A stretch of DNA of 64,000 nucleotides from Moorena sp. SIOASIH. Its GTDB lineage: Bacteria > Cyanobacteriota > Cyanobacteriia > Cyanobacteriales > Coleofasciculaceae. Position 1 is the first letter of the stretch, and each line of letters starts with the position of its first letter. A model generated the notes under the pieces. It was not told where the DNA came from. It was given only the letters and a program-made list of their open reading frames with translations, and did no database searches. Where the stretch lies: assembly GCF_010671925.1 (NCBI RefSeq), contig NZ_JAAHIH010000001.1, forward strand, positions 549,053-613,052, given 5' to 3'. Shown piece by piece: positions 3,195 to 64,000 of the stretch. The translations under genes were made by a program, and so were the position numbers.

Positions 3195-3207
3195 TTTTAG
3201 GGTAAAG

Positions 3208-3419
3208 GTAAGCATTCAGCTATCAGCTATCAGCTTTCAGCTATCAGCTTTCAGCTATCAGCTTTCAGCTTTCAGCTATCAGCTTTCAGCTTTCAGTCAT
3301 CAGTTTATGCGCTACGCGCACGCTACCCGAACAGCTTTTGAATAAAATAAGCTGACCGCTGACTACTGACTACTGACTACTTACGGCTGACCGCTGACCG
3401 CTGACCGCTGACTGCTTAA
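3208..3419. mobile_element. MITE-like palindromic element. It starts with GTAAGCATTCAGC, has (CAGCTAT/CAGCTTT)n at the 5' end and (GACTACT)/(GCTGACC)n at the 3' end, and its internal core is shared with the other copies.
   Basis: The 13-bp terminus is identical to the TIR of copies at 12578, 29837 and 61578. It contains the internal motifs TGCGCTACGCGCACGCTAC and TTTTGAATAAAATAAGCTGAC. The 3' terminus is degenerate (GCTGACTGCTTAA). Confidence 0.6.
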
Positions 3420-4199: not shown

Positions 4200-5741
4200 A
4201 TGAGTAAAGAAACAGATATAGTTGTAATTGGCAGTGGGATTGGTGGTTTATGCTGCGCCTCTCTTCTAGCTCGCTACGGTTTTAACGTCACAGTCTGCGA
4301 GAGCCACTCAATCCCTGGTGGTGCTGCTCACGCTTTTGAGCGCAATGGATTCAAGTTTGACTCCGGTCCGTCTCTTTACTCAGGTTTGTCTTATAGCCCT
4401 TCTTCCAATCCTCTGCGACAACTGCTAGATGCCATCGGTGAGGATTTATCTTGGGAAACCTACAATACATGGGGTTGCCGTTTGCCTGAAGGTGACTTTG
4501 ACACATCGGTTGGTGCGGATCAGTTTTGTGAGGTTCTAGCCAGGCTTCGTGGTAACGATGCTGTAACCGAATGGCGTGAGCTTCAGCGCGTCATGGAACC
4601 CCTAGCTAAGGCTGCGATCGCAATTCCCCTCACTGCCATCCGTTTTGATCTTGGCGCAGTAGTCACCCTCAGCCGATTTGCCCCCTCTTTCTTACGCTAT
4701 GCTGGGGATTCTATCAAGCTCAGAGGACCCTTTAGCCAGATTATGGACGGTGTTCTCAAAGACAACTTTAGCCGTAATTGGCTGGAGTTGCTTTGTTTTC
4801 TATTATCCGGACTACCAGCGGATGGAACCATTGCGGCAGAGATGGCCTTTATGTTTGCCGAATGGTATCGACCAGGAGTAGTGCTAGACTATCCCATTGG
4901 TGGTAGTGGTGCCTTAGTTGATGCCCTAGTGCGGGGATTAGAAAAACATGGCGGTCAGTTGATAGTTAATGCTCATGTTGAAGAAGTGATAGTTGAGCAC
5001 AACCGTGCCGTAGGAGTGCGTCTGCGGGGCAGCAAAGAAATCCGAGCCCGTAAAGCAGTAGTGTCTAATATCTCAGTATGGGATACCCTCAAACTTCTTC
5101 CAGATTCAGCAATACCAAAATCCTATCGAGCCAAGAGAAACGCCACCCCTGAGTGTGATAGCTTCATGCATCTCCACTTAGGCATTGATGCTGAAGGACT
5201 AGAAAAAGACCTAGCCTGCCACTACATTATCGTTAATGACTGGGAAAAGGGTGTTACCGCTCCTCAAAATATAGTAGTGCTATCGATTCCATCCCTTCTA
5301 GACCCATCCCTAGCACCACCAGGAAAACACGTGATTCACGTTTATACTCCAGGTAACGAACCCTATCAACTCTGGCAAGGCATGAGTCGTAGCAGTGAAG
5401 CCTATGCACAACAAAAGCAGGTGCGTGCAGAAATCATGTGGAAAGGATTGGAGCGCATCATTCCAGACATTCGTTCCCGTTGTGAAGTCACTCTAGTCGG
5501 TACACCACTGACCCACGAACGCTTTCTGCGCCGCCACCGAGGTTCCTACGGTCCAGCAATTCGAGCAGGAGTTGGCATCTTTCCTGGTCCTGGCACACCC
5601 CTACCTGGACTAATGTGCTGTGGAGACTCAACCTTTCCCGGTATTGGTTTACCAGCAGTTGCAGCCAGCGGGATGATTACCGCCAATACCCTTGTACCGG
5701 TTTCAAAGCATTTGGAAATGCTGAAAACGATTGGGTTATAG
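4200..5741 (+). CDS. NAD(P)/FAD-dependent oxidoreductase, phytoene-desaturase (CrtI/CrtD)-like family
   Basis: 513 aa. The N-terminal dinucleotide-binding motif is DIVVIGSGIGGLCCASLLA…E-x-GG; size and architecture match amine-oxidase/desaturase-family flavoproteins. Confidence 0.65.
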   Translation: MSKETDIVVIGSGIGGLCCASLLARYGFNVTVCESHSIPGGAAHAFERNGFKFDSGPSLYSGLSYSPSSNPLRQLLDAIGEDLSWETYNTWGCRLPEGDFDTSVGADQFCEVLARLRGNDAVTEWRELQRVMEPLAKAAIAIPLTAIRFDLGAVVTLSRFAPSFLRYAGDSIKLRGPFSQIMDGVLKDNFSRNWLELLCFLLSGLPADGTIAAEMAFMFAEWYRPGVVLDYPIGGSGALVDALVRGLEKHGGQLIVNAHVEEVIVEHNRAVGVRLRGSKEIRARKAVVSNISVWDTLKLLPDSAIPKSYRAKRNATPECDSFMHLHLGIDAEGLEKDLACHYIIVNDWEKGVTAPQNIVVLSIPSLLDPSLAPPGKHVIHVYTPGNEPYQLWQGMSRSSEAYAQQKQVRAEIMWKGLERIIPDIRSRCEVTLVGTPLTHERFLRRHRGSYGPAIRAGVGIFPGPGTPLPGLMCCGDSTFPGIGLPAVAASGMITANTLVPVSKHLEMLKTIGL

Positions 5742-5903
5742 CATTTGAGTTTAAAGGGAGCAGGGAGCAGGGAGTAGGGAGCAGGGGGAAGAGTGTCAGG
5801 ATAGGGAGAAGAAGTAGTTGGGGAGAATTTGGTATCTTTAAATGCATTGTCTTGATGCAGCCGCTCATAGTGGAAACCACACCACTTGCTCCCCACCCTC
5901 CTC

Positions 5904-5975
5904 ACTCCCGACTCCCGATTCCCGATTCCCGACTCCCGACTCCCGACTCCCGACTCCCTACTCCCTACTCCCTGT
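5904..5975. repeat. STRR-like heptamer repeats (ACTCCCG/ATTCCCG/ACTCCCT)
   Basis: Directly visible. A related GGGAGCA tract lies at 5755..5795. Confidence 0.9.
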
Positions 5976-8900
5976 TCACGGATCACCAACTAGCAGGAAA
6001 GCAGCCCAATAATAGGGATGCGTAAAGCTTTGTTTTCCAAATCCTGACAATTCTGAGGATAAAGCAATTTTCTTGCCAGAGCTATATAAGTGATCATTCT
6101 CGATCCGGACATTGCCTCGAATCATTGCCAACTGTGCCTGTCGCAAGGCTTCAGTTTTACTCGGTGTCTTGTTCAACTGACGGTAAAACTCTGTAGTCAG
6201 CCCCATAGCCCCTTGGTCACTGACAGACCAAAGGGTTGCTAGAGTGGAGTCAACCCCTGCCTGAAACGCTGATCCAGCAAAACCTAACTCTGCTTCCCGA
6301 TTTCCCAAAGCCGTTTGGCAAGCGCTGAGTACCAACAACTCTACTGATGGCTCATAAAACAGATTTTCCAGTTCATCGAGCCCCAGTTTTTTGTCCCACA
6401 TTTGAATATAAGAATTTTCAGGAGCTCCTCGATTAAACTGAGCATGGGTAGCTAAGTGAATGATGCCAAATTTCCGCTTTTTTCGTTGAGCCTTTAAATT
6501 TTCCAGAGTGAAGCTTTCGTTGAGAAAATAGTTACCTTCCCACAGTTTTTTGTCGATAATTGTTTCTAACTCGACTTTTACCCAAGGCAAATCCTCTTTA
6601 TCAGAAAATTGGGAGGCTCCCATCGCCAGCAGTCGCAAGGATTGAACATTGCTAAACCGAGAATAGGTCAAACTAAGGCTAGGCACCAGGCTGACACTAT
6701 AATTTTCTACTAGATAGTTCTTTTGATCGTGCAGAGCAGCCAGGGGTAGAGAGCGCAAACCCTGATCCATGGCAAATATCAGGCTCTCGATCTTATTAGC
6801 TTTTAACTCAGACTCCAACGGTCCGATCAGCCATTGGTAAAGTTGCTGAGCTGCTTTGAGATGATCCTTATCATCCAAGTTTCGGGGATTTATCAGTGTT
6901 CGATGAAAAGTCCTGGTCACAGCTAGGACTTCAGCACGATTGGCGTTATAGACTCGCCGCAGAATTGGATTACCGTCTGCTTTGATCAGCAACAGTTCTA
7001 GCTGGTCATCGCTTTGTTGTAAGCATTTTTCCGGTTCTGAAGGTAGATCAGAGGTTCGGTAACCAAATCGTCGGTCAATTTCGGCTGCTGGGATTGCCGG
7101 AGTTTGGCATCGCGTTCCTGGCAATGTCAGGGAGTTTTGGACAAAACTGACATAAATAACCCCAGTCTTGAGACCCTTCTCCCGCTCAAGCTCACGAATG
7201 CGATCGCGCACATCATTCTGAGTATAAATTTTGGTCTTGAGCTGTCGCAGAAAGTATGCCTGATATTCTTCTGTGAAGGCTTTTTCTATGCCATACACTA
7301 GGTCACTTTTAACGGTCGCCTCTAGTGTGATTGGTTGCTCTACCGGTGGTGGAACCTCTGGTGGTGTTATTGATGAGTTATCCGGTGTGGGGATTGTTGA
7401 GTCTACCTGTGGTGAAACTGCTACATCCTTCTGTACTACAACCGTTACATAATCTGGCGCTAGGACTGTAACATCATCCGGTGGTGTAACCGTTGAGTCA
7501 TCGGGTGGTAGGACTGTAACATCATCTGGTGGTGTAGCTGTGCCATCATCCGGTGGTGTAACTGTGCCATCATCCGGTGGTGTAACTGTGCCATCATCCG
7601 GTGGTGTAACTGTGCCATCATCCGGTGGTAGGACTGTAACATCATCCGGTGGTGTGACTGTGCCATCATCCGGTGGTGTGACTGTGCCATCATCCGGTGG
7701 TGTAACTGTGCCATCATCCGGTGGTGTAACTGTGCCATCATCTGGTGGTGTGACTGTGCCATCATCCGGTGGTGTAACCGTTGAGTCATCCGGTGGTAGG
7801 ACTGTTACATCATCTGGTGGTGTAACTGTGCCATCATCCGGTGGTGTAACCGTTGAGTCATCCGGTGGTGTAACCGTTGAGTCATCCGGTGGTGTAACCG
7901 TTGAGTCATCCGGTGGTGTAACCGTTGAGTCATCCGGTGGTGTAACCGTTGAGTCATCCGGTGGTGTAACCGTTGAGTCATCCGGTGGTGTGACTGTGCC
8001 ATCATCCGGTGGTGTGACTGTGCCATCATCCGGTGGTGTGACTGTGCCATCATCCGGTGGTGTACCTGTGCCATCATCCGTTGGATCTCCCGGATTAATA
8101 CTAATCTCTCCTCCTGTACCTTGGATAGCATCTAACCGTGAGTTAGATGCTATTTGTGCTCGTATTGCTTCTACATCAGTTTCGCTAGTAATGTCAGGAG
8201 CGAAGACTATGATATCACCACCATTCCCACTCCTCTGAGCTTGTGTGTTGATATCAATATCATCAAAGTTAACATTGTTTGAATCTGGAACATTAAAGGT
8301 TATGTTACCAGAATCACCACCGTTTGATGCCTCGGTAATAATTCTGAGAGTCTCACCATTTACCTGAATGCTTCCCTCTGCAGTTTCCAAGGTTACATCA
8401 CCAGAATTACTACCCCCTGTTTCTGTCGTCCTGATCGTGGTAATAATCAAACCATCATTATTACGGAATATAATGTCATCTTGAGCTGATAAGATTACAG
8501 GTCCAGCATCACCCTGATCAGAACTCGTGTCGATATTACCAATAGTGATACTCCCTTCAGATGAATTCTCTTCGAGATTAGAGAATTCTGTTCCCTCTAC
8601 GGTGACTGATTGATTAGGATCAAGATTAACTGGATTACTCAATTGATCCTCACTCAAACCTGCTCGCAAAATCAGAGAGCGGCGTTGGGTCAAATTCTCA
8701 AAATCTGGATCTGAAGTGGGAATCGAGCCAGTGGTATCTGGCTGTGTGATCTCGATATTTCCCCCCTCAATACTTCCGGTAGACTCTACTTTCAGAGAAG
8801 CTCCTGTATAATCCCCAAAGATGACATCGCCTCTAGAGATAATAATCGGGTCATAGAAGCTCAGAAAATTACCTGGTTTACCAGATAAATTCAGAATCGA

Positions 8901-29836: not shown

Positions 29837-30177
29837 GTAAGCATTCAGCTATCAGCGTGTCCCGTATCAGCTATCAGCTAATGCGCTACGCGCACGCTAC
29901 TTGAGGTGCTATCAACCATTAGCCATTGGCCTGTGGCTACCGTACTTGAGGTGCTTATGGGCTATGGGCACGCTGTCTTGATGCAGTCGCTCATGGGGGA
30001 AACCACGGCAGTTGCTCATGGGGGGAACCCCCAAGACCGCACTGCCTCCCCAAGACCGTAATGGTGCGTTTTCCGTAGGCGAATTAAATTCGCCACGGGT
30101 CGCACCTCTGCATCGCTACTTGAGGTGCTTTTGAATAAAATAAGCTGACGGCTGACCGCTGATGGCTGAATGCTTAC
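29837..30177. mobile_element. MITE-like element, 341 bp, with perfect 13-bp TIRs and an 8-bp target-site duplication AGGGAAGT. It is inserted into the 3' end of a response-regulator gene.
   Basis: GTAAGCATTCAGC at 29837-29849 and GCTGAATGCTTAC at 30165-30177. AGGGAAGT occurs at 29829-29836 and 30178-30185. The interior carries the dispersed CATGAGCGACTGC / GCGGTCTTGGGG motifs. Confidence 0.8.
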
Positions 30178-30550
30178 AGGGAAGTATTCTTAACTGCTGA
30201 TTAATTGCTGCTAATAGTTCCCGACTCTCTACAGGTTTGGTTAGATAATCGTTGGCTCCCAGTTGCTTAGCTCGAGCATAGCCATCCTCCTTTGACTGAC
30301 TGCTTAGAAATATAAACGGTGTTTTCGCTGTAGTTATCCTATCCCGTAATATCTGGAGAAGCTCATACCCATCAATTGATGGTATATTAATTTCACAAAT
30401 AATTAAATCAGGTCGGACAACTTTAGCTAAAGTTAAACCGAGCCAACCGTCTTCTGCAGTAAGGACATTAAAGCCTTCTAATTCCAGTAAATCTGAGAAA
30501 TTTGAGCGCAACAGTTTATCATTTTCAATTAATAAAATTGTTTTGTTCAT
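30116..30550 (-). CDS. CheY-like single-domain response regulator. Its last 20 codons are read from the inserted MITE.
   Basis: MNKTILLIENDKLLR… with phospho-acceptor Asp context (DLIICEINIPSIDG) and the conserved KPV. The ORF track's upstream extension (MGINLDHEF…) is unlikely to be translated. Confidence 0.75.
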   Translation of the reverse strand: MNKTILLIENDKLLRSNFSDLLELEGFNVLTAEDGWLGLTLAKVVRPDLIICEINIPSIDGYELLQILRDRITTAKTPFIFLSSQSKEDGYARAKQLGANDYLTKPVESRELLAAINQQLRILPCKHSAISGQPSAYFIQKHLK

Positions 30551-49308: not shown

Positions 49309-50838
49309 ATGACTACTAATTATAAAACCATAGCCCCATATCCCTATGAAAAATCAAATCTCATGCCTCTACGTTGGCTATTTTACTTGTGTTTAGGGAT
49401 ATCTGTTAATGCCGGAATTTGGGGCTTAACATTTTTTTATTTGAAATCAGCTAAGCCAACTTATAACAGTACATGGGCAGTATCACTTCCTGTCTCAGGC
49501 TCATCCACCAGAATTAATATCCCAGAATTAGGGGGAGCGAGTTCAGATGTTAGGTCACCATTTGGCGATCGCTCCCATGACCCAAGGGAAAAGATGAAAT
49601 TCATTGCGGAAAGTAAGCCGGTACTAAAGGATGCTGCCAGTGTACTGAACATGTCCCGTGAAGAGTTGGGCAAGCCTAGGGTCAAAATAGTAGACAATTC
49701 AACTATGATGGCCTTTGAGATCAAAGGAGACTCTCCTGAGGAAGCGCAACAGAAAGCTTTGGCTATGTACCAGGCTTTCCAGGATAGACTTGAACAACTT
49801 AGACAAGAAGAATTAGTAGACAATCAGCTACCAATTCAAGCTGATTTGGAGGCAGCTAAGAAAAATTTAGCAGATATTCAAAGAAGCCTGTCTGAACACA
49901 AAGCTAGAACTGGATTGAACTCGAAAGAACAAGTTAACCAGCTATCATCCACTATAGAAAGTTTACGACAACAACAAATCGATTTGTTGGCCCAAGGGCG
50001 AGAAGCAAAAGCCAATCTCAGCAACCTCTCAGCTAATCTAAAGTTGTCATCTCAGCAAGCTGCTGATGCTTTTGTACTTAAGGCTGACCAGATATTTCAG
50101 CAAACCCTAAGGGAATACAGTCAGGCTACCGCAGCCCTGACGGTTTTGAGTTCCAAATACGGTTCCAAGCATCCATCTGTAGTGGATGAAAAAAGCAAGC
50201 AAGAGAGTGCTAAAGCAGCTTTGCTAGAGCGTAGTCAATCTCTGTTAGGTCGCCCCATGTCTTTGGCAATTATCGACCAGCTCAGTGTTAACTCTGGGCC
50301 TGAAACTGGTTCTTCCCGGGAAAATTTGCTCAGGCAAATTGTTGAGGTGGAAGCACGGCAAGAGGGTGTGGAAGCTAGGGCGTGGGTATTAACCAACCAG
50401 ATTGCTGAGCTGGAAGCCAAACTCAAACAAATGAGCCAGGATGCCTTGAGGATGGAGATCCTAGAACGCAATATGCGCATTGCGGAAACTATCTATGCTT
50501 CAACCTTAACTCAATCAGCGATTGGTCGATTCAACCAATCCCTTTCCTATCCTCAAGTTCAGCTGCTAGCTGAACCCAGCTTACCCCCAGACGCGATAGC
50601 ACCGAAAAAGTCATCGGCTTTACTTGGTGCAGCAGCTGGTTCCTTCTTAATTAGTGCAGGACTATTTTTACTCTGGTTACGTCCCCATTTACAAGGTAAA
50701 TCACAACCCTCAATGTACGGCAAAGTAGAATCGTTTAACTCTGATGTTCCACCCTTACGTTCTCAACCATCAAATAATAGCTTCACAACATCTAATAGCT
50801 TCACATCGCCAATCGGGAACCAAAGAAAAGATTTCTGA
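49309..50838 (+). CDS. Polysaccharide co-polymerase (Wzz/GumC-like chain-length determinant) without a kinase domain
   Basis: 509 aa. TM1 is LRWLFYLCLGISVNAGIWGLTFFYL. A long coiled-coil periplasmic region follows, and TM2 is LLGAAAGSFLISAGLFLLWL. Confidence 0.7.
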   Translation: MTTNYKTIAPYPYEKSNLMPLRWLFYLCLGISVNAGIWGLTFFYLKSAKPTYNSTWAVSLPVSGSSTRINIPELGGASSDVRSPFGDRSHDPREKMKFIAESKPVLKDAASVLNMSREELGKPRVKIVDNSTMMAFEIKGDSPEEAQQKALAMYQAFQDRLEQLRQEELVDNQLPIQADLEAAKKNLADIQRSLSEHKARTGLNSKEQVNQLSSTIESLRQQQIDLLAQGREAKANLSNLSANLKLSSQQAADAFVLKADQIFQQTLREYSQATAALTVLSSKYGSKHPSVVDEKSKQESAKAALLERSQSLLGRPMSLAIIDQLSVNSGPETGSSRENLLRQIVEVEARQEGVEARAWVLTNQIAELEAKLKQMSQDALRMEILERNMRIAETIYASTLTQSAIGRFNQSLSYPQVQLLAEPSLPPDAIAPKKSSALLGAAAGSFLISAGLFLLWLRPHLQGKSQPSMYGKVESFNSDVPPLRSQPSNNSFTTSNSFTSPIGNQRKDF

Positions 50839-52230: not shown

Positions 52231-53214
52231 ATGCCCACCATATCTGTAATAGTTCCCGTTTATAACGGAGAAAAAACTATATTAGAAACGATCCAATCGA
52301 TTCAAGCACAAACGTTTTCAGATTTTGAGTTAATTGTTATTAATGACGGCTCCACTGATGGTACATTAGATGTAATCAGTACAGTCAACGATCATCGATT
52401 GAAAGTGTTTTCCTATGAAAATGGCGGATTGCCAGTGGCTCGTAATCGTGGCATTCGTCGCTCTACGGGCGATTTGATTACGTTTATAGATGCTGATGAT
52501 TTATGGAAACCCGATAAATTGGAGCTACAGTTAGCAGCACTGCAAAAAAATCCTGAAGCCGGAGTGGCTTACAGTTGGACAGCATTTATAGATGAGAATA
52601 GCAAATTTTTGTTTGCTTGGCAACCACTATATTGGGAGGGTAATGTTTATCCCCAATTACTAATTCGTAACTTTATATCCAGTGGTTCCAATATCATGGT
52701 AAAGCGGAAGTATATTGAAGCAGCTGGAGAATTTGACCCATCCCTGAAATCAGTTGAAGATTGGGATTATTACCTCAGGCTAGCAGCTTTATGTCATTTT
52801 GCACTGGTTCCTAAATACCAAATTTTATACCGTCGCTCTTCCCAGTCAATGACCTCTAAAGTGGATGTGATGGAGAAGGCGAACCTAATTGTAATTGAAA
52901 GAGCCTTCAAGGCAGCTCCACCAGAACTTAAGTCTCTTAAAAATAAGAGTTTAGCGAATGCCTATCGTTATCTTGCTAAGCAGTGTATAGCTAATGCTTT
53001 TGATGATCAAGGAGTAAAGCTAGCTAGTCAAAAACTAAGCTATTCCATAAAGCTTTATCCCAAATTTTTGCTAAGCAAGGAAACTATACGTCTAATTTTA
53101 AAACTATTAATAATCAAAATTATGCCTAAAAAACTAGCTGGACATTTAATCCAACTAATCGGTCAGAAAATGCCGATGGTATCTGTTGATAATCGGATGA
53201 TTTCAGAGCACTAA
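52231..53214 (+). CDS. Glycosyltransferase family 2 (GT-A)
   Basis: MPTISVIVPVYNGEKTI…VINDGSTDGT…, a DAD motif (FIDADD) and GT2 size. Confidence 0.85.
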   Translation: MPTISVIVPVYNGEKTILETIQSIQAQTFSDFELIVINDGSTDGTLDVISTVNDHRLKVFSYENGGLPVARNRGIRRSTGDLITFIDADDLWKPDKLELQLAALQKNPEAGVAYSWTAFIDENSKFLFAWQPLYWEGNVYPQLLIRNFISSGSNIMVKRKYIEAAGEFDPSLKSVEDWDYYLRLAALCHFALVPKYQILYRRSSQSMTSKVDVMEKANLIVIERAFKAAPPELKSLKNKSLANAYRYLAKQCIANAFDDQGVKLASQKLSYSIKLYPKFLLSKETIRLILKLLIIKIMPKKLAGHLIQLIGQKMPMVSVDNRMISEH

Positions 53215-53290: not shown

Positions 53291-55630
53291 GTGAAAATTG
53301 TCAAAACAATAGGGAGTCGCATCAAGCACAAACTAGGTAATAGAAGCACTTTTACTCGCAATCTTGGTTGGATGGGAGTGGCCCAGGCATTTATTCGGGT
53401 TTCCCGTTTAGGTGCAACGTTTATTTTGCCACGCTTCTTAACTCCCCATGACTTTGGATTAGCTGCACTGGTTCTGACGACCTATGAATATTCACAAACA
53501 GTAACGCGGATCGGTGTTCATGCTAGAATTATACAGGCGGAAGCCGATGAGCTGGAAGACATTTGTAATAGTGCTTATTGGTTAAATTGGGTACTTTTTG
53601 CAAGTCTATTCGTTATGCAGTGCCTTGCTGCTTTTCCAGTTGCGTGGTTTTATAAGGATAACCAACTTATTTTACCCATTTGTCTATTAGCATTTAACTT
53701 TTTGATTGCTCCCTTAGGAGCAGTACAGTCAGCACTAATTCAAAGGGATAATCGAATTCAGGTAACCGCTACTGCTCGCGCTCTCAGATATGCCACCGCC
53801 AATATTTTAACCACTGTCTTTGCTGTTCTTCATCTGGGAATGTGGGCGATAATACTTCCCATACTATTAGCTAGCCCTATAGAATTCATTACCTATCTGT
53901 TCAAACATCCCTGGCGGAGAACTGGCTCTTTCACAACCAAATACTGGGGTAAAATTTTTCGCTTTGGAATCAATTTCCTGGGGATTGAACTTTTAAAGAC
54001 TCTCAGGGAAACTCTCGACTATCTTATCATTGGTCGCTTTATAGGAATTGACCTATTAGGTGTTTACTACTTTGCTTACAATGCTGGCTTGGGAATTAGC
54101 TTGACTATCGTCCAATCGATTACTACTGCTTTATACCCTGCCCTATGTGAAGTACGGACAAACTTATCGAAATTTAAGCAAACATACTTTAGCAGTCTGA
54201 AGACGATTGGGAAAGTGATTGTTGGTTTTGTTGCTTTACAAGCAAGTCTAGTTCCGTTTTATATTCCCATTATGGTTGGGGAAAAAATTCATACGGAAGG
54301 CTGGAGTATGGTGGTTCCCATCGTCATTTTAGTTTGCTTATCAGCAATTCCTAGACCCTTTGATATTGCTGGATTTCAGCTTTTAGCAGCCATTGATAAA
54401 CCGCAAATTGGCTTGCTCTGGAATATCTTATTTACCATCATCTTTTCCTGTAGTCTACTGATAGCAGTGAAATGGGGAATCATCACGGTCGCTGTATCGG
54501 TTTTACTGGTTCATGCCCTTTTAATTCCCTTATTTGTGGTTTGGTCTGCTAGGTATGTCTTTGCTAAACCTGAAACGTCTCCTGTAGCCTTAGAGCATAC
54601 TGTACTCCAATCTCATACTGTACTCCAATCTCACGATGAGACTGATACTGATCAGTTTTATGTCAGCCAATGGACTTTATCATTAGCCAGTAGTGGGACA
54701 TTCCCTAACACTCAGGTTTCTGAATTTGGTGATGCTGACAGTAATAACAGTAATAACAGTAATAGCAGTGCCGGGTTAAGCGATCGCATCGATGATCCCA
54801 GAAAACACCTGAAGTTGATAGCTGAAAGTGTGACGGTTTTAGAAGAAGCGGCAAAGCAGCTAAATATATCTGTAGATAGCTTAGATAAGCCTTCGATTCA
54901 ACTAATCGATAACTCTACAATGATGGTTTTTGAAATTTCAGCAGTCACCCCTGAGGAAGCGCAACGGAGAGCCTTCGCCATTAATCAGGCGTTTAACAAA
55001 AGACTGGAACAACTCAGAAAGCAAGAAATTGCTCAACAAGAAAAAACTATCCCAGTGTATATAAAGTCAGCGGAAAACGATCTAGAAAAAGCACAGCAAC
55101 GCCTAGCTGAAAAAACGGCGAACATAGGATTGCCCTTAAACCAGCTCTTAGAGACAATAGAAGCACTACGGCGCAAAAAGATTGAATTACGACGTAAAAA
55201 GATTGAATTGCTGGCTGAGCTAGTACCGACTCAGTCTGATCATAGTCATTCTACCAATCCTCAGGTGATGAATCCTGTTCACCATCAGCCTCAAGCTAGC
55301 TTATTCCAAGATGATCCACCCTTAGAAATGGATGATATTAAACCACAACTACAAGGTAGTGATGACAAGGCCAGGGATCTAGAGTTTCAGATTTCTCAGC
55401 TTGAAGTAAAACTTAGCAAAATGTCCCAAGATGCCTTGACTCTGGAAATTCTAGAGCGAGATTTACGCATTGCACAAACCGTCTATTCCTCTGTTTTAAG
55501 CCAATGGGAAATAGTTAAGTCAGACTCATCTATTATGTATTATCCCCAACTGCAATTGGTAGCGGGTCCTACCTTAGCTACCAGATCACAAATGCAAAAT
55601 AGTCTAGTACACTTGGGCAGAAATTTGTGA
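53291..55630 (+). CDS. Fusion protein: Wzx-like oligosaccharide flippase (N-terminal ~430 aa, polytopic) joined to a truncated Wzz/GumC-like periplasmic coiled-coil domain that is paralogous to the 49309 ORF
   Basis: The N-terminus has 12-14 TM helices (flippase/MATE-like). Residues ~470-779 align with 49309 residues ~55-430 (…LIAESVTVLEEAAKQLNISVDSLDKPSIQLIDNSTMMVFEI… vs …FIAESKPVLKDAASVLNMSREELGKPRVKIVDNSTMMAFEI…). The C-terminal TM2 is absent. Confidence 0.7.
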   Translation: MKIVKTIGSRIKHKLGNRSTFTRNLGWMGVAQAFIRVSRLGATFILPRFLTPHDFGLAALVLTTYEYSQTVTRIGVHARIIQAEADELEDICNSAYWLNWVLFASLFVMQCLAAFPVAWFYKDNQLILPICLLAFNFLIAPLGAVQSALIQRDNRIQVTATARALRYATANILTTVFAVLHLGMWAIILPILLASPIEFITYLFKHPWRRTGSFTTKYWGKIFRFGINFLGIELLKTLRETLDYLIIGRFIGIDLLGVYYFAYNAGLGISLTIVQSITTALYPALCEVRTNLSKFKQTYFSSLKTIGKVIVGFVALQASLVPFYIPIMVGEKIHTEGWSMVVPIVILVCLSAIPRPFDIAGFQLLAAIDKPQIGLLWNILFTIIFSCSLLIAVKWGIITVAVSVLLVHALLIPLFVVWSARYVFAKPETSPVALEHTVLQSHTVLQSHDETDTDQFYVSQWTLSLASSGTFPNTQVSEFGDADSNNSNNSNSSAGLSDRIDDPRKHLKLIAESVTVLEEAAKQLNISVDSLDKPSIQLIDNSTMMVFEISAVTPEEAQRRAFAINQAFNKRLEQLRKQEIAQQEKTIPVYIKSAENDLEKAQQRLAEKTANIGLPLNQLLETIEALRRKKIELRRKKIELLAELVPTQSDHSHSTNPQVMNPVHHQPQASLFQDDPPLEMDDIKPQLQGSDDKARDLEFQISQLEVKLSKMSQDALTLEILERDLRIAQTVYSSVLSQWEIVKSDSSIMYYPQLQLVAGPTLATRSQMQNSLVHLGRNL

Positions 55631-55773
55631 TCAGTTCCTGGGAAGATGATAGTGCTCAGGAGGTAATTTTTAGTCGTCAGTTGTCAGTTTCAAGTATTTA
55701 TATATTTTTTTGATAAATTTTCTTTAAAAAAATTAAATTAAAACTAGTTCTCTTTAAAACCACTGGTCAAACA

Positions 55774-56799
55774 ATGAAACATGTTTCTGTCATTATTCCC
55801 GTCTACGGAGTTGAAAACTATATTGCAGCAGCGGTGCAGTCTGTTCTCGACCAGACCTATACCAACTTTGAACTGCTCATTATTGATGATGAATCCCCAG
55901 ACAGTAGTATAAAAATTTGTCAAGAATTCTCGGATCATCGAATTAAGATTATTCATCAAACTAATCGGGGACTTGCTGGAGCGCGCAATACAGGAATTCG
56001 CCATGCCAAAGGAGATTATTTAGCGTTTTTAGATGGGGATGACTTGTGGTTGCTTCAGAAACTGGAAAGACATATTGAACACTTAGAAAAATTTCCAGAG
56101 GTAGGGGTTAGTTTTAGCCGTTCAGCATTGATTGATGAATCTGGAAATTTATTGAACACTTATCTAATGCCTAAGTTAAAGGACATTACCCGATCAGATT
56201 TATTCCGGTCTAGTCCTATTGGTAATGGTTCAGCTCCCGTAATTCGACGGGAAGTCTTTGAAGCCATTAAGTATCAAGATAACCTTTACGGCACTACAGA
56301 ATATTTTTACTTTGATGAAAACTTCCGCCGCGCTGAAGATATTGAATGTTGGCTACGTATTGCGATTCAGACAGACTGGAAAATTGAGGGAATCCCTGAA
56401 GCACTAACCCTATATCGAGTCAATTCAGCCAGTCTTTCAGCGAACTTAGTCAAACAGTTGGATTCGTGGAAACAAGTACTAGAAAAAACTCGCTCCTACG
56501 CTCCTGAATTGATTGAGAAGTGGGGAAATTTAGCCCTGGCCTATCGATTGCGAAACTTTGCTCGTAGTGCAGTACGTCTCAAAGATGGACCAATGTCTGT
56601 CAAACTAATTAATGGTGCTTTGGCAACTTACTGGCGTCTTCTCTTGGAAGAACCAAGCCGTACCCTTCGGACTTTGGTTGCTGCCTATTTACTTTTGCTG
56701 TTGCCTAAGCCCCTATATTCCCACCTCGAAGTTCTCGCTGTTAAAGTAGTGGGAATGATCCAAAGACGTCAGATTTGGCAAGACCAACTTGGACAATAA
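55774..56799 (+). CDS. Glycosyltransferase family 2, paralog A
   Basis: MKHVSVIIPVYGVENYI…LIIDDESPD…GLAGARNTGI…FLDGDDLW. Confidence 0.85.
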   Translation: MKHVSVIIPVYGVENYIAAAVQSVLDQTYTNFELLIIDDESPDSSIKICQEFSDHRIKIIHQTNRGLAGARNTGIRHAKGDYLAFLDGDDLWLLQKLERHIEHLEKFPEVGVSFSRSALIDESGNLLNTYLMPKLKDITRSDLFRSSPIGNGSAPVIRREVFEAIKYQDNLYGTTEYFYFDENFRRAEDIECWLRIAIQTDWKIEGIPEALTLYRVNSASLSANLVKQLDSWKQVLEKTRSYAPELIEKWGNLALAYRLRNFARSAVRLKDGPMSVKLINGALATYWRLLLEEPSRTLRTLVAAYLLLLLPKPLYSHLEVLAVKVVGMIQRRQIWQDQLGQ

Positions 56800-56834
56800 T
56801 TGTCTTAGTCATTCAGTATAGGATGGTTGATAAA

Positions 56835-57860
56835 ATGAAAAAAGTTTCCGTCATTACTCCAGTCTACAACGTTGAGAAGTATATTGCTGCTACAGTACAG
56901 TCAGTTTTGGATCAAACTTACCAAAATTTTGAATATTTGCTCATTGATGATGGTTCTCCTGACGACAGTGTAGAGATTTGCCAGCAGTTCATAGACCCCA
57001 GAATCAAAATTATTCGTCAGGAAAATCAGGGAGCTAATGCAGCAAGGAATGAAGGCATCCGCCAAGCCGAGGGAGAGTATTTAGCATTTTTAGATGGCGA
57101 TGACCTATGGTTGCCTCAAAAGCTAGAAAAACATATTGAACATTTGGAAAAAAATCCAAACTTGGGGATTAGCTTTAGCTGTTCTGGGTTTATCGATGAA
57201 GCAGGAAATCCCCTAGGAATCTATCAACTACCCAAGCTAAAGGACATCACCATCGGTGACATAATTTGCCGTAATCCTATTAGTAATGGCTCCTGTGCTG
57301 TGTTCCGCAAGCAGGTATTTGAAGCCATTAAGTACCAAGAGACTATCAACGGAAAGACCAAAGACTTTTATTGGGATGAGGGATTGCAAGGGTCACAGGA
57401 TTTGGATTGTTGGTTTCGCATTGCTATCCAAACCAATTGGGACCTGGAAGGCATTCCTCAGTCTTTGACTCTATACCGAGTCAATTCCAGTGGTATATCA
57501 GCTAACTTGTTCAAAAAACAAAAGTCTTGGGAACAGGTAATTGAGAAAACTCGCTCTTATGCTCCTGATGTGGTGGTTGAGTGGGAAAATCGTGCCCGTG
57601 CTTACCATTTGAGGTATCTAGCTCGTCGTGCAGTTACCTTGAGAGATGGTGCAATGGCTGTCCAATTCTTCAACCAAGCTCTGGGGAGCTACTGGCAGAT
57701 GCTCTGGGAAGAACCACGTCGTACCCTGTTAACTGGGGCTGCGGCCTATTTGCTCTGGCTTATACCTCAGAATCTTTACAAGCATATAGAAGCTTTAGCT
57801 TTAAAAACCACAGGGTCTTCACAACAGCGCCGGATTTCTCAAGCAATCCGAGGGACATGA
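56835..57860 (+). CDS. Glycosyltransferase family 2, paralog B
   Basis: MKKVSVITPVYNVEKYI…LLIDDGSPD…FLDGDDLW. It is collinear with paralog A throughout. Confidence 0.85.
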   Translation: MKKVSVITPVYNVEKYIAATVQSVLDQTYQNFEYLLIDDGSPDDSVEICQQFIDPRIKIIRQENQGANAARNEGIRQAEGEYLAFLDGDDLWLPQKLEKHIEHLEKNPNLGISFSCSGFIDEAGNPLGIYQLPKLKDITIGDIICRNPISNGSCAVFRKQVFEAIKYQETINGKTKDFYWDEGLQGSQDLDCWFRIAIQTNWDLEGIPQSLTLYRVNSSGISANLFKKQKSWEQVIEKTRSYAPDVVVEWENRARAYHLRYLARRAVTLRDGAMAVQFFNQALGSYWQMLWEEPRRTLLTGAAAYLLWLIPQNLYKHIEALALKTTGSSQQRRISQAIRGT

Positions 57861-57924
57861 AATGTCATCTATTAGCAAATAGCTAAAGCCTTGCTACCAT
57901 GCTGGTTTTTGGGCGTTGCTGAAT

Positions 57925-58090
57925 CTTTGAATGAATAGGAGTAGAGTGGGCATCCTGCCCGCTCGAAAATATATTGAAACTGGCAAGATGCCAGTTCTAC
58001 CAAGATGCCAGTTCTACCAAGATGCCAGTTCCACCAAGATGCCCGTTCCACCAAGATGCCCATTCTACGGCAAGATGCCCATTGCACAAA
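57925..58090. repeat. Second, inverted copy of the dispersed module: conserved spacer plus a (CAAGATGCCAGTTCTAC)n array of 6 units
   Basis: It is the reverse complement of 559..690. Confidence 0.8.
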
Positions 58091-58156
58091 ACTTTTAAAA
58101 TCATTCCATTATTAAGCAACGCCGGTTTTGGGGTAATGGGTCATAGGTCTGCCAAT

Positions 58157-58247
58157 TACCCATTACCCATTACCCATTACCCATTACCCATTCCCGACTC
58201 CCCACTCCCCACTCCCCACTCCCGATTCCCCACTCCCCACTCCCGAC
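58157..58247. repeat. STRR-like heptamer repeats (TTACCCA)5 then (CTCCCCA/CTCCCGA)n
   Basis: Directly visible. Confidence 0.9.
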
Positions 58248-58903
58248 CCAAATGTAAAAAACCTACCCCTGTGAGCACAGCCCCTCTCCATTCGCGACGG
58301 CATCAAGACAGTGAAATTAGATATTTTGTTAGTTGTAGCTAATTGTAAAATTTCTGTCTAGTAATTGTGAAATTTCTGTCTAGTTTTGATAAATCCTATA
58401 TCTGGCTAGACAGTTTTTTTGTTGCTATAATTTTTAATTATGATATACTTCTATAAAGTCTGGTTTGATCGCTTTTATATAAGCTGACAGGGATGGCATC
58501 TTGAAATCCTGATATTGCTTAATTGCCTACTTTTGACGTTCACTGTCTTATCTAGCTGTCGTATATACTAGCAATGCTACCGGAAAATATATTATACAAT
58601 TAAACAAAAATTGATAACTATAAAACTATAAAACAAAAACTAAGAAAATTTATCTGGGGGGCGACCAGCGCCCCAAAGTACTTGCCAGCTTGAGGTTTAA
58701 GCTTACAGTGACTTCTAAACTATACATAGACCCAACTATACATAGACAAAAGAAGCATAGTTTGAATTATTGAGAACTCAATCCCTGATTAGTTCGTCCA
58801 AGTTTAAGAAAAATCGGGTTGATAATTTTGGTAAATTAATTACCGAAATCTCTACCAGATAATACTTATAGCTAACCTATCACAACCTCATAAATTTTAG
58901 CCT

Positions 58904-59917
58904 ATGAAAACTGTTTCGATAATTATCCCAGTATACGGAGTTGAAAAGTATATTGCTAGCGCAGTACAGTCGGTTATCAACCAGACTTATCAAAACTTTG
59001 AACTGCTGATTATTGACGATGAATCTCCCGATCAAAGTGTAAACATTTGTCGGGAATTATCCGATACCAGAATTAAGATTATTCACCAAACTAATCGGGG
59101 ACTTGCTGGAGCGAGAAATACAGGAATTCGCCATGCCAAAGGAGATTATTTAGCCTTTTTAGATGGAGACGACTTGTGGTTGCCTCAGAAACTGGAAAGA
59201 CATATTGAACACTTAGAAAAATTTCCAGAGGTAGGGATTAGTTTTAGCCGTTCTGCATTGATTGATGAATCTGGAAATTTTATGGGTGCCTATCTAATGC
59301 CTAAGCTCAGTAATATTACTATATCTGATTTGTTTCGAGAGAGCCCGATCGGGAACGGTTCGGCTGCTGTAGTTCGTCGGGAAGTCTTTGACACAATTAA
59401 GTATCAGGATAATCTTTACGGCCCTACAGAAGATTATTACTTTGATGAAAACTTCCGTCGTGCTGAAGATCTTGAATGTTGGCTTCGCATCGGTATTCAA
59501 ACTGAGTGGAAAATTGAGGGAATACCTGAAGCACTAACCCTGTATCGCATTAATACACAAGGGTTGTCAGCCAATCTCTTCAAGCAGTTAGAGTCCTTGG
59601 AAAAAATGATTGAAAAGACCCGTTCCTATGCTCCCACAGTAACCAGCCAATGGGAAAAGATTTCTAGGGCTTACCACTTGCGGTACTTGGCTAGGAGTGC
59701 GGTTCGTCTTAAAGTAGGTTCAGATGCTGTGACCTTTATACATCGCTCATTATCCAATCACTGGCGTATCCTACTAGAACAGCCACGGCGAACAATCTTA
59801 ACCTTAATAGCCGCTTATATGCTTTGGTTATTACCAAAGTCTTTATATGCTCAAATTGAATTGCTTTTCTCTAAGCTGCTTAAAAAGGTTAAAAAACAGC
59901 CTCTTCTCCAAAACTAG
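58904..59917 (+). CDS. Glycosyltransferase family 2, paralog C (closest to paralog A)
   Basis: MKTVSIIIPVYGVEKYI…; long runs identical to paralog A (RIKIIHQTNRGLAGARNTGIRHAKGDYLAFLDGDDLWL). Confidence 0.85.
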   Translation: MKTVSIIIPVYGVEKYIASAVQSVINQTYQNFELLIIDDESPDQSVNICRELSDTRIKIIHQTNRGLAGARNTGIRHAKGDYLAFLDGDDLWLPQKLERHIEHLEKFPEVGISFSRSALIDESGNFMGAYLMPKLSNITISDLFRESPIGNGSAAVVRREVFDTIKYQDNLYGPTEDYYFDENFRRAEDLECWLRIGIQTEWKIEGIPEALTLYRINTQGLSANLFKQLESLEKMIEKTRSYAPTVTSQWEKISRAYHLRYLARSAVRLKVGSDAVTFIHRSLSNHWRILLEQPRRTILTLIAAYMLWLLPKSLYAQIELLFSKLLKKVKKQPLLQN

Positions 59918-59998
59918 TACCGCTGCGCGGAATTCAAAATTCAAAATTCAAAAACCAAAAAAATTACTTAGTTTAAGCTTTAAGGATATTGACTTATT

Positions 59999-61216
59999 TT
60001 GTTAGCTAATCAGCCATTAATCTCATTTATTGATATTGCATTTTTGCTAATAGCATTTGCCCTTATCGTTCCAATTACAGTTCTTTTGATTGAATGTAGT
60101 GCAGCAATTTTGCCTAATGCTTCTAAGCCATGGTCGGATGCTAGCAAACCCCGACCAACGATGGCTGTTTTAGTTCCCGCTCACAATGAAGCCTCTGATA
60201 TCAGTGCCACCCTCGAAACATTAATACCTCAGCTTACGGAGCAAGACCGACTAATAGTAATTGCTGATAATTGCACTGATGACACCGCAGCAGTGGCTCG
60301 GAAATCTGGCGTTATCGTAATTGAACGACAGGATCATGAGCGCAGAGGTAAGGGATATGCCTTAGATTTCGGTATGGGGTTTATTGAGCCTAATCCACCG
60401 GATGTCGTGGTGGTCGTTGATGCAGACTGTATCGTTGCTGAAGGAACGATTTCACGGATTTCCCGCCTTGCGTACGCTACACAACGACCGGTTCAGTCAA
60501 CTTACTTAATGACACAACCAGACAACCCGGTACTAAAGGATTTGATCTCTACCCTGGCGGTTAAATTCAAAAATACAGTCCGTCCGACTGGGTTACATCG
60601 ACTGGGCTTGCCTTGTTTGTTAACAGGTTCAGGAATGGCTTTCCCCTGGTCAGTGATTCGCAAAATCTCTTTGGCTGGCAGTAAAACAGTTGATGATATG
60701 CAGTTGGCTTTGGATTTAGCGATCACTGGGCATTCCCCAATATATTGCCAAGAAGCAGGAGTCACAGGTCGTCTGATGAAAGAGGCTTCAGCAAAGAGTC
60801 AAAGGTCACGCTGGGAGCATGGTCATATCGAGACTCTGCTAAACCAAGTTCCTGAGTTACTCAAAGAGTCTATTCGTCAAAGACGTTTCGACCTATTAGC
60901 GTACGCATTAGACTTATGTGTGCCACCATTGTCCCTATTGGTTCTAATGTGGGTAGCTGCTACAGGGGGAGCTTTACTCGGGGTAGCCTTGGGAGGATCA
61001 TGGATAAGTACCATTGTCTTACTCATAGAAGGGGTACTCCTGTTAATTGCGATTGTTGAAGGTTGGGCTAAGTTTTGCCGAACAGACTTTCCGATCCTGA
61101 TGCTCTTAGCTGTCCCGATTTACATTCTGTGGAAAATTCCCGTCTATCTGGCTTTTCTGGTGGAACCTCAGACCAAGTGGATTCGCACAGAAAGGGATGC
61201 AGTCGATACCCCATAA
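59999..61216 (+). CDS. Membrane-integrated processive GT2 (synthase-type; cellulose/chitin/hyaluronan-synthase-like) with a QxxRW motif
   Basis: N-terminal TM helices, then a GT-A domain (LVPAHNEA…DNCTDDT…VVVDADC) with a C-terminal polytopic region. QRSRW at ~res 267-271 matches the processive Q(Q/R)XRW signature. Confidence 0.7.
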   Translation: MLANQPLISFIDIAFLLIAFALIVPITVLLIECSAAILPNASKPWSDASKPRPTMAVLVPAHNEASDISATLETLIPQLTEQDRLIVIADNCTDDTAAVARKSGVIVIERQDHERRGKGYALDFGMGFIEPNPPDVVVVVDADCIVAEGTISRISRLAYATQRPVQSTYLMTQPDNPVLKDLISTLAVKFKNTVRPTGLHRLGLPCLLTGSGMAFPWSVIRKISLAGSKTVDDMQLALDLAITGHSPIYCQEAGVTGRLMKEASAKSQRSRWEHGHIETLLNQVPELLKESIRQRRFDLLAYALDLCVPPLSLLVLMWVAATGGALLGVALGGSWISTIVLLIEGVLLLIAIVEGWAKFCRTDFPILMLLAVPIYILWKIPVYLAFLVEPQTKWIRTERDAVDTP

Positions 61217-61239
61217 TCGTAATCAACTGATTCTACGCT

Positions 61240-61590
61240 GGGTTTGCATTCAGCTAATGCGCTACAGATGGTGCTACTTGAGGTGCTTTTGAATAAAAGA
61301 GGTAAGCATTCGTTATAAAAGAGATAAGCATTCAGCTCTCAGCTCTCAGCTCTCAGCTCTCAGCTCTCAGCTCTCAGCTTTTGAATAAGCGATGCAGCGC
61401 GGTCTTGGGGAGGCAGTGCGGTCTTGGGGGTTCCCCCCACTCGCTATTGCCGTGGTTTCCCCCATGAGCGACTGCATCAAGACAACAAGTAAGCATTGGT
61501 TTAATCTATGTTACGTCAGCACCTCTAGTAGCGTGAGCCTTGGCCATTCGCGAATGGCTGACGGCTGACGGCTGACGGCTGAATGCTTAC
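61240..61590. mobile_element. Composite MITE-like repeat region with nested partial copies. It ends with the canonical TIR GCTGAATGCTTAC at 61578-61590.
   Basis: Contains GTAAGCATTCG/ATAAGCATTCAGC internal termini, (CAGCTCT)8, GCGGTCTTGGGG x2, CCCCCATGAGCGACTGCATCAAGACAA and (GGCTGAC)3. Confidence 0.55.
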
Positions 61591-61850
61591 AGCATTCGTT
61601 TAATCTGAGTTATGTCACAGCACTTGTGGCCTATGCCACAAAGCTGATTGACTTTTACCCAGACTTTCAATTCTCTAAAATCTCTTAATATTAAATTCTC
61701 CCGTTTGCGCATCGGCGCAAACGGGAGAATGCTTACCAAAAACCTTATAGAGTAAGCTTATTATATAAGGGTTTCCCTAGTTTTGAAGACTATCTTTATT
61801 TACCTTTTGCTTTTCTAGCATGGTTAACTAATTTCAAGGTGCGAACTACA

Positions 61851-62864
61851 ATGAACAAAGTCTCGGTAATTATTCCAGTCTATAAGGTTGAAAAATACAT
61901 AGCAGCCACAGTATAATCTGTGCTCGCCCAAACCTATAAAAATTTTGAGTTGCTACTCATTGATGATGGCTCTCCTGACAAAAGTATCGAAATATGTCAA
62001 CAAATTAACGATCCGAGAATTAAAATTATTCATCAGGATAATCAAGGAGTCTCAGCGGCTATAAATACTGGTATTCGCCATGCTCAAGGAGAGTATATCG
62101 CTTTCTTAGATGGAGATGACCTCTGGGTTCCAGAAAAGCTAGAAAAGCATGTTTTGCATCTAGAAACATCACCCCATGTAGGAGTGAGTTTTAGCTATTC
62201 TGCGTTAATTGATGAAACAGGAACTCCGTTAGGAATCTATCAAATAGCCAAAACTAAAGATATAACTACAGATTATATCATGTGTCGTAATCCCATTGGG
62301 AATGGTTCAACACCAGTGATTCGGCGAGAAGTGTTTGAAGCAATTCGATACCGAAACGAGCAGGCTACGGAGGATGCTTATTTTGATACTGAATTACACA
62401 ATATCGAAGACGTGGAATGTTGGCTGCGCATGGCGATTAAAACTGATTGGCACATGGAAGGTTTGCCAGAGGCGCTAACTTTATATCGTATTCATTCACA
62501 AGGGCATTCAGCTAGTATACTCAAGCATATAAACTCTCTAGAAAAGGTGATTGAGAAAACACGTGCCTATGCTCCAGAGGTAATTGCTGAATGTGAAAAC
62601 CCAGCCCGCGCCTATTATTTACGGTTTGGTGCTCGACGTGCCCTCAGCATCAACGAAGACTTGATGGCAACAGAATTGTTTAATAAGGCTTTAGCAACTT
62701 ACTGGCGTATTTTGCTAGAGGAACCGCTTCGTACTCTGTTGACCGGGGCTGCTGCTTATTTGCTCCGACTTTTACCTAAAACTCTTTACCAGCAAATGGA
62801 AGCTGTGGCGTTAAAAACGACAGGAGCTTCGCAAAAGCGCCGAATTTCTCAGGAGCAAGCTTAG
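61851..62864 (+). pseudogene. Glycosyltransferase family 2, paralog D, with an in-frame TAA at codon 22. The position is Gln in paralogs A-C.
   Basis: ATG at 61851 reads MNKVSVIIPVYKVEKYIAATV-[TAA 61914-61916]-SVLAQTYKNFELLLIDDGSPD…. The ORF track only recovers a GTG restart at 61920. Confidence 0.7.
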
Positions 62865-63248
62865 TATTTGATATAGCAGTTCTTATTTGGGTGAGGTACG
62901 TCGTCGGCCCAGGGCTGTTTCAAAGTCTGACTAGAATTTCACGGGTAGGATGATAGGGAGATAGGATAATTATTATTACTATTTTTAAGGTTCAAAATAC
63001 CCTATATCCATCACCATATCTCCCTTTAAAAAGATTGATATTACAATTTATTATTAAAAATAAAATAGATCTGCTTAATAAGAGGGGGAGTTGTGAATAA
63101 AATTGACTGTACTTTATAAGTATGCTAAACGCCATATTGTGCTTTACAAATAGTTTTTATTTTTTTGTAAAATTTTGTAAATAAAGTTTATCAACCCCGA
63201 TTAGTTTCTGCTAGAACTTAAAAGCTAAGCTTTATACGCAGCTAAAAA

Positions 63249-64000
63249 ATGAATCTACCTTTAACAATCAAAACTCACCTGAAAGAGTTAGTGATTGGCA
63301 CACGGTTTGAGCCTGCGGCAAGAAGTATTGTTGATTTGATCAAGCCTCCCAGCAAAGATATCCTGAGGAGCAGGGAAGATGACACCTATGTCTATCAGAT
63401 TATGAAGCGGATTTTAGACAAATCCTCAAACTGTATCGATGTGGGTGCCAACATGGGGAGTGTGTTGACAAAAATATGCCAACTGGCTCCCCTCGGTCAG
63501 CACTATGCTTTCGAGCCGGTTCCCCGACTGGCTACTCGGCTGCAAAAACGGTTCCCAAAGGTTGATGTTAGGCAAATTGCTTTGAGTGATTTACAGGGAC
63601 AAACCACGTTCTTCCATGTTGTTGATGCCCCAGCACTCAGTAGTCTAAAACACAGAGACTACACCCATTGGGGCTATAACAATGCTCAAACAGAATCGAT
63701 TGCCATCAAAACTCAAAAACTTGATGACATCCTTCAACCTGACTTCAAAGTTAAGTTTATTAAGGTAGATACAGAAGGAGCAGAGTTTCAGGTTTTCAAA
63801 GGTGCTATCCGAACCTTAAAAACCCACAAGCCTTACCTAGTCTTTGAATTTGGTCGTACTGCCATGGTTTATTATAAAACAACGCCAGGTATGATGTATG
63901 ATTTCCTAGTCAACCAGTGTGGTTTTAAGTTTTTTAAACTGAACAGTTGGCTAGAGGGGTTAACTCCACTCAGTAAGACGGAATTTGCCATAATCTGTGA
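63249..64000 (+). CDS. FkbM-family SAM-dependent methyltransferase (3' end beyond window)
   Basis: MNLPLTIKTH… with …IDVGANMGSVLTK… and …FIKVDTEGAEFQVFKGA…, typical of the FkbM family. The ORF is open to the window end. Confidence 0.65.
   Translation, partial: MNLPLTIKTHLKELVIGTRFEPAARSIVDLIKPPSKDILRSREDDTYVYQIMKRILDKSSNCIDVGANMGSVLTKICQLAPLGQHYAFEPVPRLATRLQKRFPKVDVRQIALSDLQGQTTFFHVVDAPALSSLKHRDYTHWGYNNAQTESIAIKTQKLDDILQPDFKVKFIKVDTEGAEFQVFKGAIRTLKTHKPYLVFEFGRTAMVYYKTTPGMMYDFLVNQCGFKFFKLNSWLEGLTPLSKTEFAIIC

Follow-up and report, generated by a model that had tools for sequence, protein, structure and literature searches.

An old array of GT2 glycosyltransferase genes in Moorena, with a conversion tract, a shared pseudogene and later insertions

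Gain, loss and pseudogenisation of glycosyltransferases are known in the Wzx/Wzy-dependent O-antigen and capsule loci of other bacteria. Here we analyse four tandem family 2 glycosyltransferase (GT2) genes, A to D, in a 64,000-nucleotide (nt) stretch of the cyanobacterium Moorena sp. SIOASIH (contig NZ_JAAHIH010000001.1, positions 549,053 to 613,052, forward strand; hereafter the window), at what appears to be the glycosyltransferase end of an extracellular-polysaccharide (EPS) cluster of the Wzx/Wzy type. As in O-antigen and capsule loci, the set of transferases varies between close strains by point inactivation, cassette insertion and recombination of paralogues, but this is a cyanobacterial sheath/EPS cluster, and its inserted gene appears to come from a second cluster in the same genus rather than from a foreign donor. 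We conclude, with a probability of roughly 0.8, that an old GT2 array, gene conversion between A and C, a shared D pseudogene and later insertions together represent ordinary turnover of a polysaccharide locus. None of the processes involved (ageing of paralogues, conversion, pseudogenisation, and insertion of cassettes and of miniature inverted-repeat transposable elements, MITEs) is new in kind.

The genes resemble GT2 enzymes of the GT-A fold (PF00535), such as Streptococcus GalT1/CgT (5hea), the Escherichia coli K4 chondroitin polymerase (2z86) and Bacillus subtilis SpsA (1qg8), in their invariant DGDD motif, in further motif residues that are likewise invariant, and in their predicted fold (Foldseek E-values of 1e-15 to 1e-18); they differ in having an extra helical C-terminal domain of ~120 residues (223-336 in the model), and D is truncated. 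The A/C pair resembles other tandem paralogues under concerted evolution in having a sharp tract of 93-97% identity, synonymous sites included, within genes that are otherwise 56-76% identical, but A and C are the only pair affected, and over part of the gene only. The spacer elements are like cyanobacterial MITEs and heptamer (STRR-like) repeats in being non-coding, shorter than 300 bp, multi-copy and strain-variable, with terminal inverted repeats; they were matched here to none of the named MITE families, and no partner transposase was identified. A literature search found nothing on this cluster, and only the genome paper of the SIOASIH strain.

An original prediction, made from the DNA letters alone, had placed four GT2 genes in tandem, and the open reading frames (ORFs), all on the same strand, and PF00535 matches bear this out:

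55774-56799, plus strand: GT2 paralogue A, intact, 341 aa (ORF; PF00535 E=1.9e-39)
56835-57860, plus strand: GT2 paralogue B, intact, 341 aa (ORF; PF00535 E=3.5e-41)
58904-59917, plus strand: GT2 paralogue C, intact, 337 aa (ORF; PF00535 E=2.4e-41)
61851-62864, plus strand: GT2 paralogue D, pseudogene, 337 codons otherwise open (translation from ATG)

PF00535 scores are 136-142 bits for A, B and C and 106 bits for the remnant of D (Pfam gathering cut-off 23.3). Residues D87, D89 and D90 of the DGDD (DxD) motif are invariant in 40 family sequences and present in all four genes. A scan of species-representative genomes found orthologous loci in Moorena only, with 93-96% protein identity: SIO3H5 (L001), M. 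producens 3L (L002), M. bouillonii PNG5-198 (L003), SIO3I8 (L004) and SS36440bin_2 (L005). Two independent contigs of metagenome-assembled genomes (MAGs), L007 and L018 (JAAHHP, SIO3F7-like), were also compared.

Read from its ATG, D is interrupted by one in-frame TAA, codon 22 (61914-61916), which aligns with CAG in A, B and C. The original prediction had taken this for a two-base change of CAG to TAA. However, codon 22 of the D orthologues is GAA in SIO3H5, 3L and SIO3I8 and AAA in SS36440bin_2, and Glu22 is present in 11 of 11 full-length D-orthologue proteins of the 90% cluster. A single G-to-T transversion at 61914 thus accounts for the lesion, the ancestral codon having been misjudged because paralogues, which are unsuitable for this purpose, had served as the reference. 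Intact orthologues are 95.5-97.2% identical to the window's D at the nucleotide level. The same TAA is found in PNG5-198 and in L018, and because these genomes were assembled independently and carry linked markers, sequencing error is excluded; the predicted inactivation of D is supported. The changes in and directly after the window's D that bear on its history are:

61914-61916, plus strand: premature stop TAA at codon 22, from GAA (Glu) by G to T at 61914 (orthologue comparison)
62061-62063, plus strand: Arg71Ile (AGA to ATA) in D, private to the window
62874-63138, unstranded: ~265-bp insertion directly after the D stop codon, common to the window and PNG5-198 alleles only

All three stop-bearing alleles carry Lys2Asn and Phe119Leu, and those of the window and PNG5-198 additionally have one synonymous site in common; these two are also 96.5% identical in the flank downstream of D, compared with ~90% for the other genomes. 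Each has further damage of its own: Glu14 is changed to TAA in PNG5-198, Tyr82 is a stop codon in L018, and the window's copy has Gly270Asp together with Arg71Ile, the latter at a residue that does not vary among the 40 other aligned members of the family or among the D orthologues. As the stop allele is shared by at least three genomes with independent secondary damage, we regard D as a decaying pseudogene, and its activity has probably been lost. On the simplest reading the codon-22 stop would have arisen once and then been shared by descent or recombination, a fairly young stop moving among recombining lineages, with each carrier having decayed further since. The original prediction offered D as a fresh pseudogene; the pseudogene stands, but the allele appears to be older than the split of the three sampled lineages, such that 'fresh' is true only in a relative sense. 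The site directly after D (TTTGATA|GGGTGCTTTACAAA) carries a different insert of ~117 bp in M. producens 3L (L002 11024-11141), and looks like an insertion hot spot.

What remains of D downstream of the stop is itself open:

61920-62864, plus strand: residual 314-codon ORF from GTG, corresponding to NCBI WP_366513670.1 of Moorena sp. SIOASIH (P0249, identical apart from the initiator residue)

The Pfam match of this restart ORF begins at model position 21. In the AlphaFold2 model of the intact D orthologue P0121 (mean predicted local distance difference test score, pLDDT, 91.4), strand beta1 comprises residues 4-10 and helix alpha1 residues 17-25, and its top matches in the Protein Data Bank are 5hea, 2z86 and 1h7q (probability 1.00 each). 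The window's D product lacks a complete N-terminal beta1-alpha1 unit, the codon-22 stop falling within alpha1. From the model, a product restarted at GTG 61920 without beta1 and most of alpha1 of the GT-A core should be inactive, and the 314-aa 'glycosyltransferase' in the annotation of Moorena sp. SIOASIH is best interpreted as a pseudogene remnant.

Several observations weigh against D being simply dead. On the stop-bearing branches the unambiguous derived changes comprise 10 nonsynonymous or nonsense and 11 synonymous, numbers that come from few sites with signs of recombination. Omega on these branches is ~0.3, no higher than among the intact orthologues (0.13-0.41), whereas a gene long dead should approach 1. 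Intact alleles also vary at 17 further sites at which the pseudogene alleles differ from each other, which indicates recombination; this could explain the low omega, but it weakens a simple story of a single origin. In the window, moreover, the 314 codons from the restart onwards have stayed open, and NCBI annotates them as a protein. Some room is thus left for residual selection on the truncated D ORF.

The best-surviving alternative is that D is alive, with the 314-aa product from GTG 61920 being made and kept by selection for an altered or non-catalytic function. The open ORF and the low omega speak for it, and the codon-14 stop of PNG5-198 lies upstream of the restart and would be harmless to such a product. 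The original prediction had also allowed for an N-truncated, probably inactive protein from this GTG. The Tyr82 stop of L018, however, falls inside the 314-codon ORF and interrupts it. Set against a living D are also the missing beta1 and alpha1 segments of the nucleotide-binding core, the Arg71Ile change at an invariant residue, and the lack of a Shine-Dalgarno-like sequence before GTG 61920. We therefore consider it unlikely.

The same G-to-T change at 61914 converts TAGAAT to a perfect TATAAT (61912-61917), 18 nt downstream of TTGAAA, and this TTGAAA/TATAAT pair (61888-61917) is the best sigma-70-like match in 55600-63300. A perfect -10 box would suit a living D, but a transcript from it would begin at or after the GTG, and the promoter and terminator scans returned hit counts equal to the shuffled expectation; with the counts at chance level, we draw no regulatory conclusion. 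Because one substitution makes the perfect -10 box and the 314-codon remainder has an orthologue-like dN/dS, it can also be proposed that the Glu22-stop allele is maintained and is spreading among Moorena lineages by homologous recombination, the N-truncated D, or else a transcript initiated within D, having acquired a new role such as that of a non-catalytic partner or of a regulator acting on neighbouring transferases. We regard such co-option as very improbable, and continue to treat D as a pseudogene.

The four paralogues are old. Pairwise identities among A to D are 55-72% at the amino acid level and 62-75% at the nucleotide level, and A is the closest paralogue of C (72% amino acid) and B the closest of D (63%), with B being 59-63% identical to its in-genome paralogues A, C and D. 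Long identical stretches had been claimed for all four genes, but in any pair except A/C the longest exact match is 12-17 nt. Third-codon-position identity between paralogues outside the conversion tract described below is 0.35-0.55, while dS between orthologues is 0.04-0.23; the A orthologues in other Moorena have 96-98% nucleotide identity, and the C protein is identical in MAG contig L007.

A database search shows this GT2 subfamily to be widespread in cyanobacteria. Homologues in other genera are 70-74% identical for the D type, 72-78% for the B type and ~70% for the A type, and A-, B- and D-type homologues outside Moorena are each closer than the in-genome paralogues. On the non-Moorena contig L016 the genes run in syntenic order as Wza, X, Wzy, E, Wzx, A (76%), B (78%) and BNR protein, with C and D absent, and elsewhere outside Moorena a D-type orthologue stands alone in an unrelated context. 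Since A lies next to B in L016 without C or D, we take A-B to be an ancient pair to which C and D were added in the Moorena lineage, where they would have joined the array. Over residues 205-330, A and C are each nearest to other-genus homologues and not to one another. A simple recent copying of A into C is rejected because the C-terminal halves are as divergent as genes of different genera.

These ages bear directly on the mechanism favoured by the original prediction, a recent event in which an A-B segment was duplicated through dispersed spacer repeats to give C-D, followed by fresh loss of D. The pairing of A with C and of B with D as closest paralogues is what such a duplication would leave, and B and D are more alike over their last ~40 codons (71-80% nucleotide identity). 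However, the identities are far too low, synonymous sites being near saturation outside the conversion tract, the likeness of A and C is limited to that tract, and the existence of B-type and D-type orthologues in other genera, with an A-B adjacency older than Moorena, is at odds with it. The evidence of the repeats themselves is considered with the spacers below.

The high similarity of A and C is confined to one segment:

55940-56150, plus strand: A/C conversion tract, A-side copy (gene nt 167-377); C-side copy at 59070-59280, with 8 differences in 211 nt

A and C share 70 of 73 residues at positions 53-125 and 90 of 101 at 25-125, so that the near-identity over ~100 residues noted originally is correct as a count but is a property of the conversion tract and not of the genes. 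Third-position identity is 0.90 in codons 55-125 and 0.49 elsewhere (Fisher p=5e-11). In 3L the tract extends to nt 91, with A/C nt 91-180 being 97-99% identical, as compared to 78-86% in the other genomes; tract edges are thus lineage-specific, which points to repeated conversion events. The near-identical stretch is a recurrent gene-conversion tract spanning codons ~55-125.

SIO3I8 contains a single A::C chimeric GT2 (L004 8837-9850), A-like to ~nt 270 and C-like thereafter, with B missing, and the switch point falls inside the A/C conversion tract. This chimera may be the product of a real unequal crossover or of a short-read mis-join; the latter is suggested by the breaks of several MAG contigs within A and immediately downstream of B.

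Between C and D the window contains a cassette with its own glycosyltransferase gene, where the original prediction had seen a repeat spacer only:

59957-61744, plus strand: 1.79-kb insertion between C and D, with direct repeat CAAAAACC at 59949-59956 and 61737-61744
59999-61216, plus strand: 405-aa GT2 gene of another subfamily (cellulose/PNAG-synthase-like, membrane-anchored), intact, TTG start (PF13641, PF00535, PF13632)
61695-61730, unstranded: perfect hairpin with a 16-bp stem and 4-nt loop at the right end of the insertion (inverted repeat I10; terminator-like on the minus strand)

The insertion is absent from all five species-representative Moorena loci, four of which have a C-D gap of ~110 bp; that of PNG5-198 is ~310 bp, due to a small spacer insert of its own. 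It is present with 99% identity in the independent MAG contig L007. The 405-aa gene is 94.3% identical in nucleotide sequence to a gene in a different polysaccharide cluster of Moorena sp. SIO3H5 (L008 5962-7238), and local GC at the gene is 0.46, with ~0.40 in the flanks. Since its divergence from the SIO3H5 gene is at the level of orthologues, a cassette copied or moved within the genus is the most economical account; for the same reason, a foreign horizontal origin is rejected. The probable direction of the move is argued from parsimony and orthologue-level divergence, and it counts against our account that repeated deletion between the 8-bp repeats could be the alternative. The hairpin may insulate D from upstream transcription, to judge from its sequence and position.

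The spacers contain three further repeat features:

57912-58119, unstranded: ~208-bp MITE-like insertion with a 17-nt tandem array at 57984-58079 (Tandem Repeats Finder, TRF; period 17, 5.5 copies)
58155-58244, unstranded: heptamer tracts ATTACCC then CCCACTC in the B-C spacer (TRF); like runs occur elsewhere in the window and in related loci
61315-61600, unstranded: 286-bp MITE-like element with heptamer-rich inverted ends, TCAGCTC and GGCTGAC runs (inverted repeat I1)

An array had indeed been predicted in the B-C spacer, as an 18-mer at 57925-58090; its period is 17 and its extent the shorter one given here. The predicted heptamer tracts were found as well, with others at 61332-61379 and 61556-61582 (TRF), as was the inverted-repeat element, at ~61315-61600 rather than 61240-61590. 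The first element has the terminal inverted repeats GGCGTTGCT/AGCAACGCC and GGTTTT flanks, with a further copy on the minus strand at 526-697 of the window, and is absent at this site from 3L, SIO3H5 and SS36440. The second has GCATTCGTT flanks and is absent, with a clean junction, from the otherwise 99%-identical MAG contig L007. Both fit the definition of MITEs: they are short and lack coding sequence, have terminal inverted repeats and lie between direct repeats, exist in several copies, and are found in some strains but not in others. Both also belong to dispersed repeat families, with further copies or pieces of the two elements at ~3206-3265, 10602-10874, 12577-12766 and 29837-30179 of the window.

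Repeats are thus present in both spacers, as the duplication through spacer repeats would have it, but the 17-mer module, the 61315-61600 element and the 1.79-kb insert are all missing from 3L, SIO3H5 and SS36440bin_2, in which A-B-C-D stand in the same order. The repeat modules therefore arrived after the array had formed and do not bound duplication units. In addition, a repeat comparison of the two spacers found nothing in common beyond a 23-nt match at chance level. With repeats missing from genomes that have the same four genes, and with paralogues this old, repeat-mediated segmental duplication followed by recent loss of D is scarcely credible. By our preferred account of locus turnover, the array would have formed first and its spacers would then have collected strain-specific insertions, namely the two MITEs and the 1.79-kb cassette with its unrelated 405-aa GT2. 

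There is next to no chance that the codon-22 TAA stems from a sequencing or assembly error or from reversible phase switching, for which no supporting point was found: three genomes assembled independently of one another have the same base with linked markers, the source assembly combines Illumina and PacBio data (with >30x coverage stated for the Illumina metagenomes; PMC7825088), and the site contains neither a homopolymer nor a short tandem repeat. The comparison with related strains that had been suggested as a check for phase variation gave the same TAA fixed in three genomes, and phase variation at codon 22 is rejected, this being a point substitution in non-repetitive sequence; recoding of the stop is also rejected, as it is a plain TAA without any supporting feature.

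The B-C spacer has been rearranged elsewhere. PNG5-198 has ~13.4 kb of unrelated genes between B and C (L009 9027-17026, L003 1-8676), which marks the repeat-rich B-C spacer as a rearrangement point; these genes include two VTT/DedA genes, an intein-containing RtcB, PetN, rhodanese, an NYN-domain gene, LeuA and an AIG2-like gene.

On the 5' side the array is preceded by Wza, a Wzy-like gene, GT2 'E' and Wzx, of which E had been overlooked in the original prediction:

52231-53214: GT2 'E', a distant fifth GT2, ~31% identical, upstream of A-D

On the 3' side lies an FkbM-type methyltransferase gene (Methyltransf_21 in L018), behind which related loci have a gene for a BNR-repeat protein. Scores exceed the cut-off for Wzx (PF13440, 168 bits) and Wza (PF02563, 45.6 bits), whereas the Wzy_C match is weak (21.8 bits, under its cut-off of 31.7). 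The Wzx-type flippase ORF (53291-55630) encodes 779 aa compared to 429 aa in the syntenic non-Moorena cluster L016. Its extra C-terminal ~350 residues contain short internal repeats and are 36% like the L016 homologue of the neighbouring 509-aa ORF (49309-50838); judging by these likenesses, the ORF may join a flippase to a domain of chain-length or co-polymerase type. In L018 an HNH/RRXRR endonuclease gene (424 aa; 4959-6233) lies between the methyltransferase and BNR-protein genes, and the corresponding interval of 3L has no ORF of at least 100 aa. Rfam gave no match across 55000-64000, and exact-protein look-ups for the 405-aa ORF, the 314-aa ORF, A and P0249 found no record.

The four ~340-aa paralogues belong to one cyanobacterial GT-A/GT2 subfamily, and each presumably adds, or in the case of D added, one sugar to a lipid-linked repeat unit. 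The transferase set of this one EPS cluster differs among close Moorena strains through loss of D, gain of the 405-aa GT2, a possible A::C fusion and the 13-kb insertion in PNG5-198, in agreement with the diversification that the original prediction had suggested. Gain of the cassette and loss of D together would probably have changed the glycan that is made. Because the transferase set differs in this way, the structure of the sheath or EPS may vary between strains of natural-product-rich Moorena.

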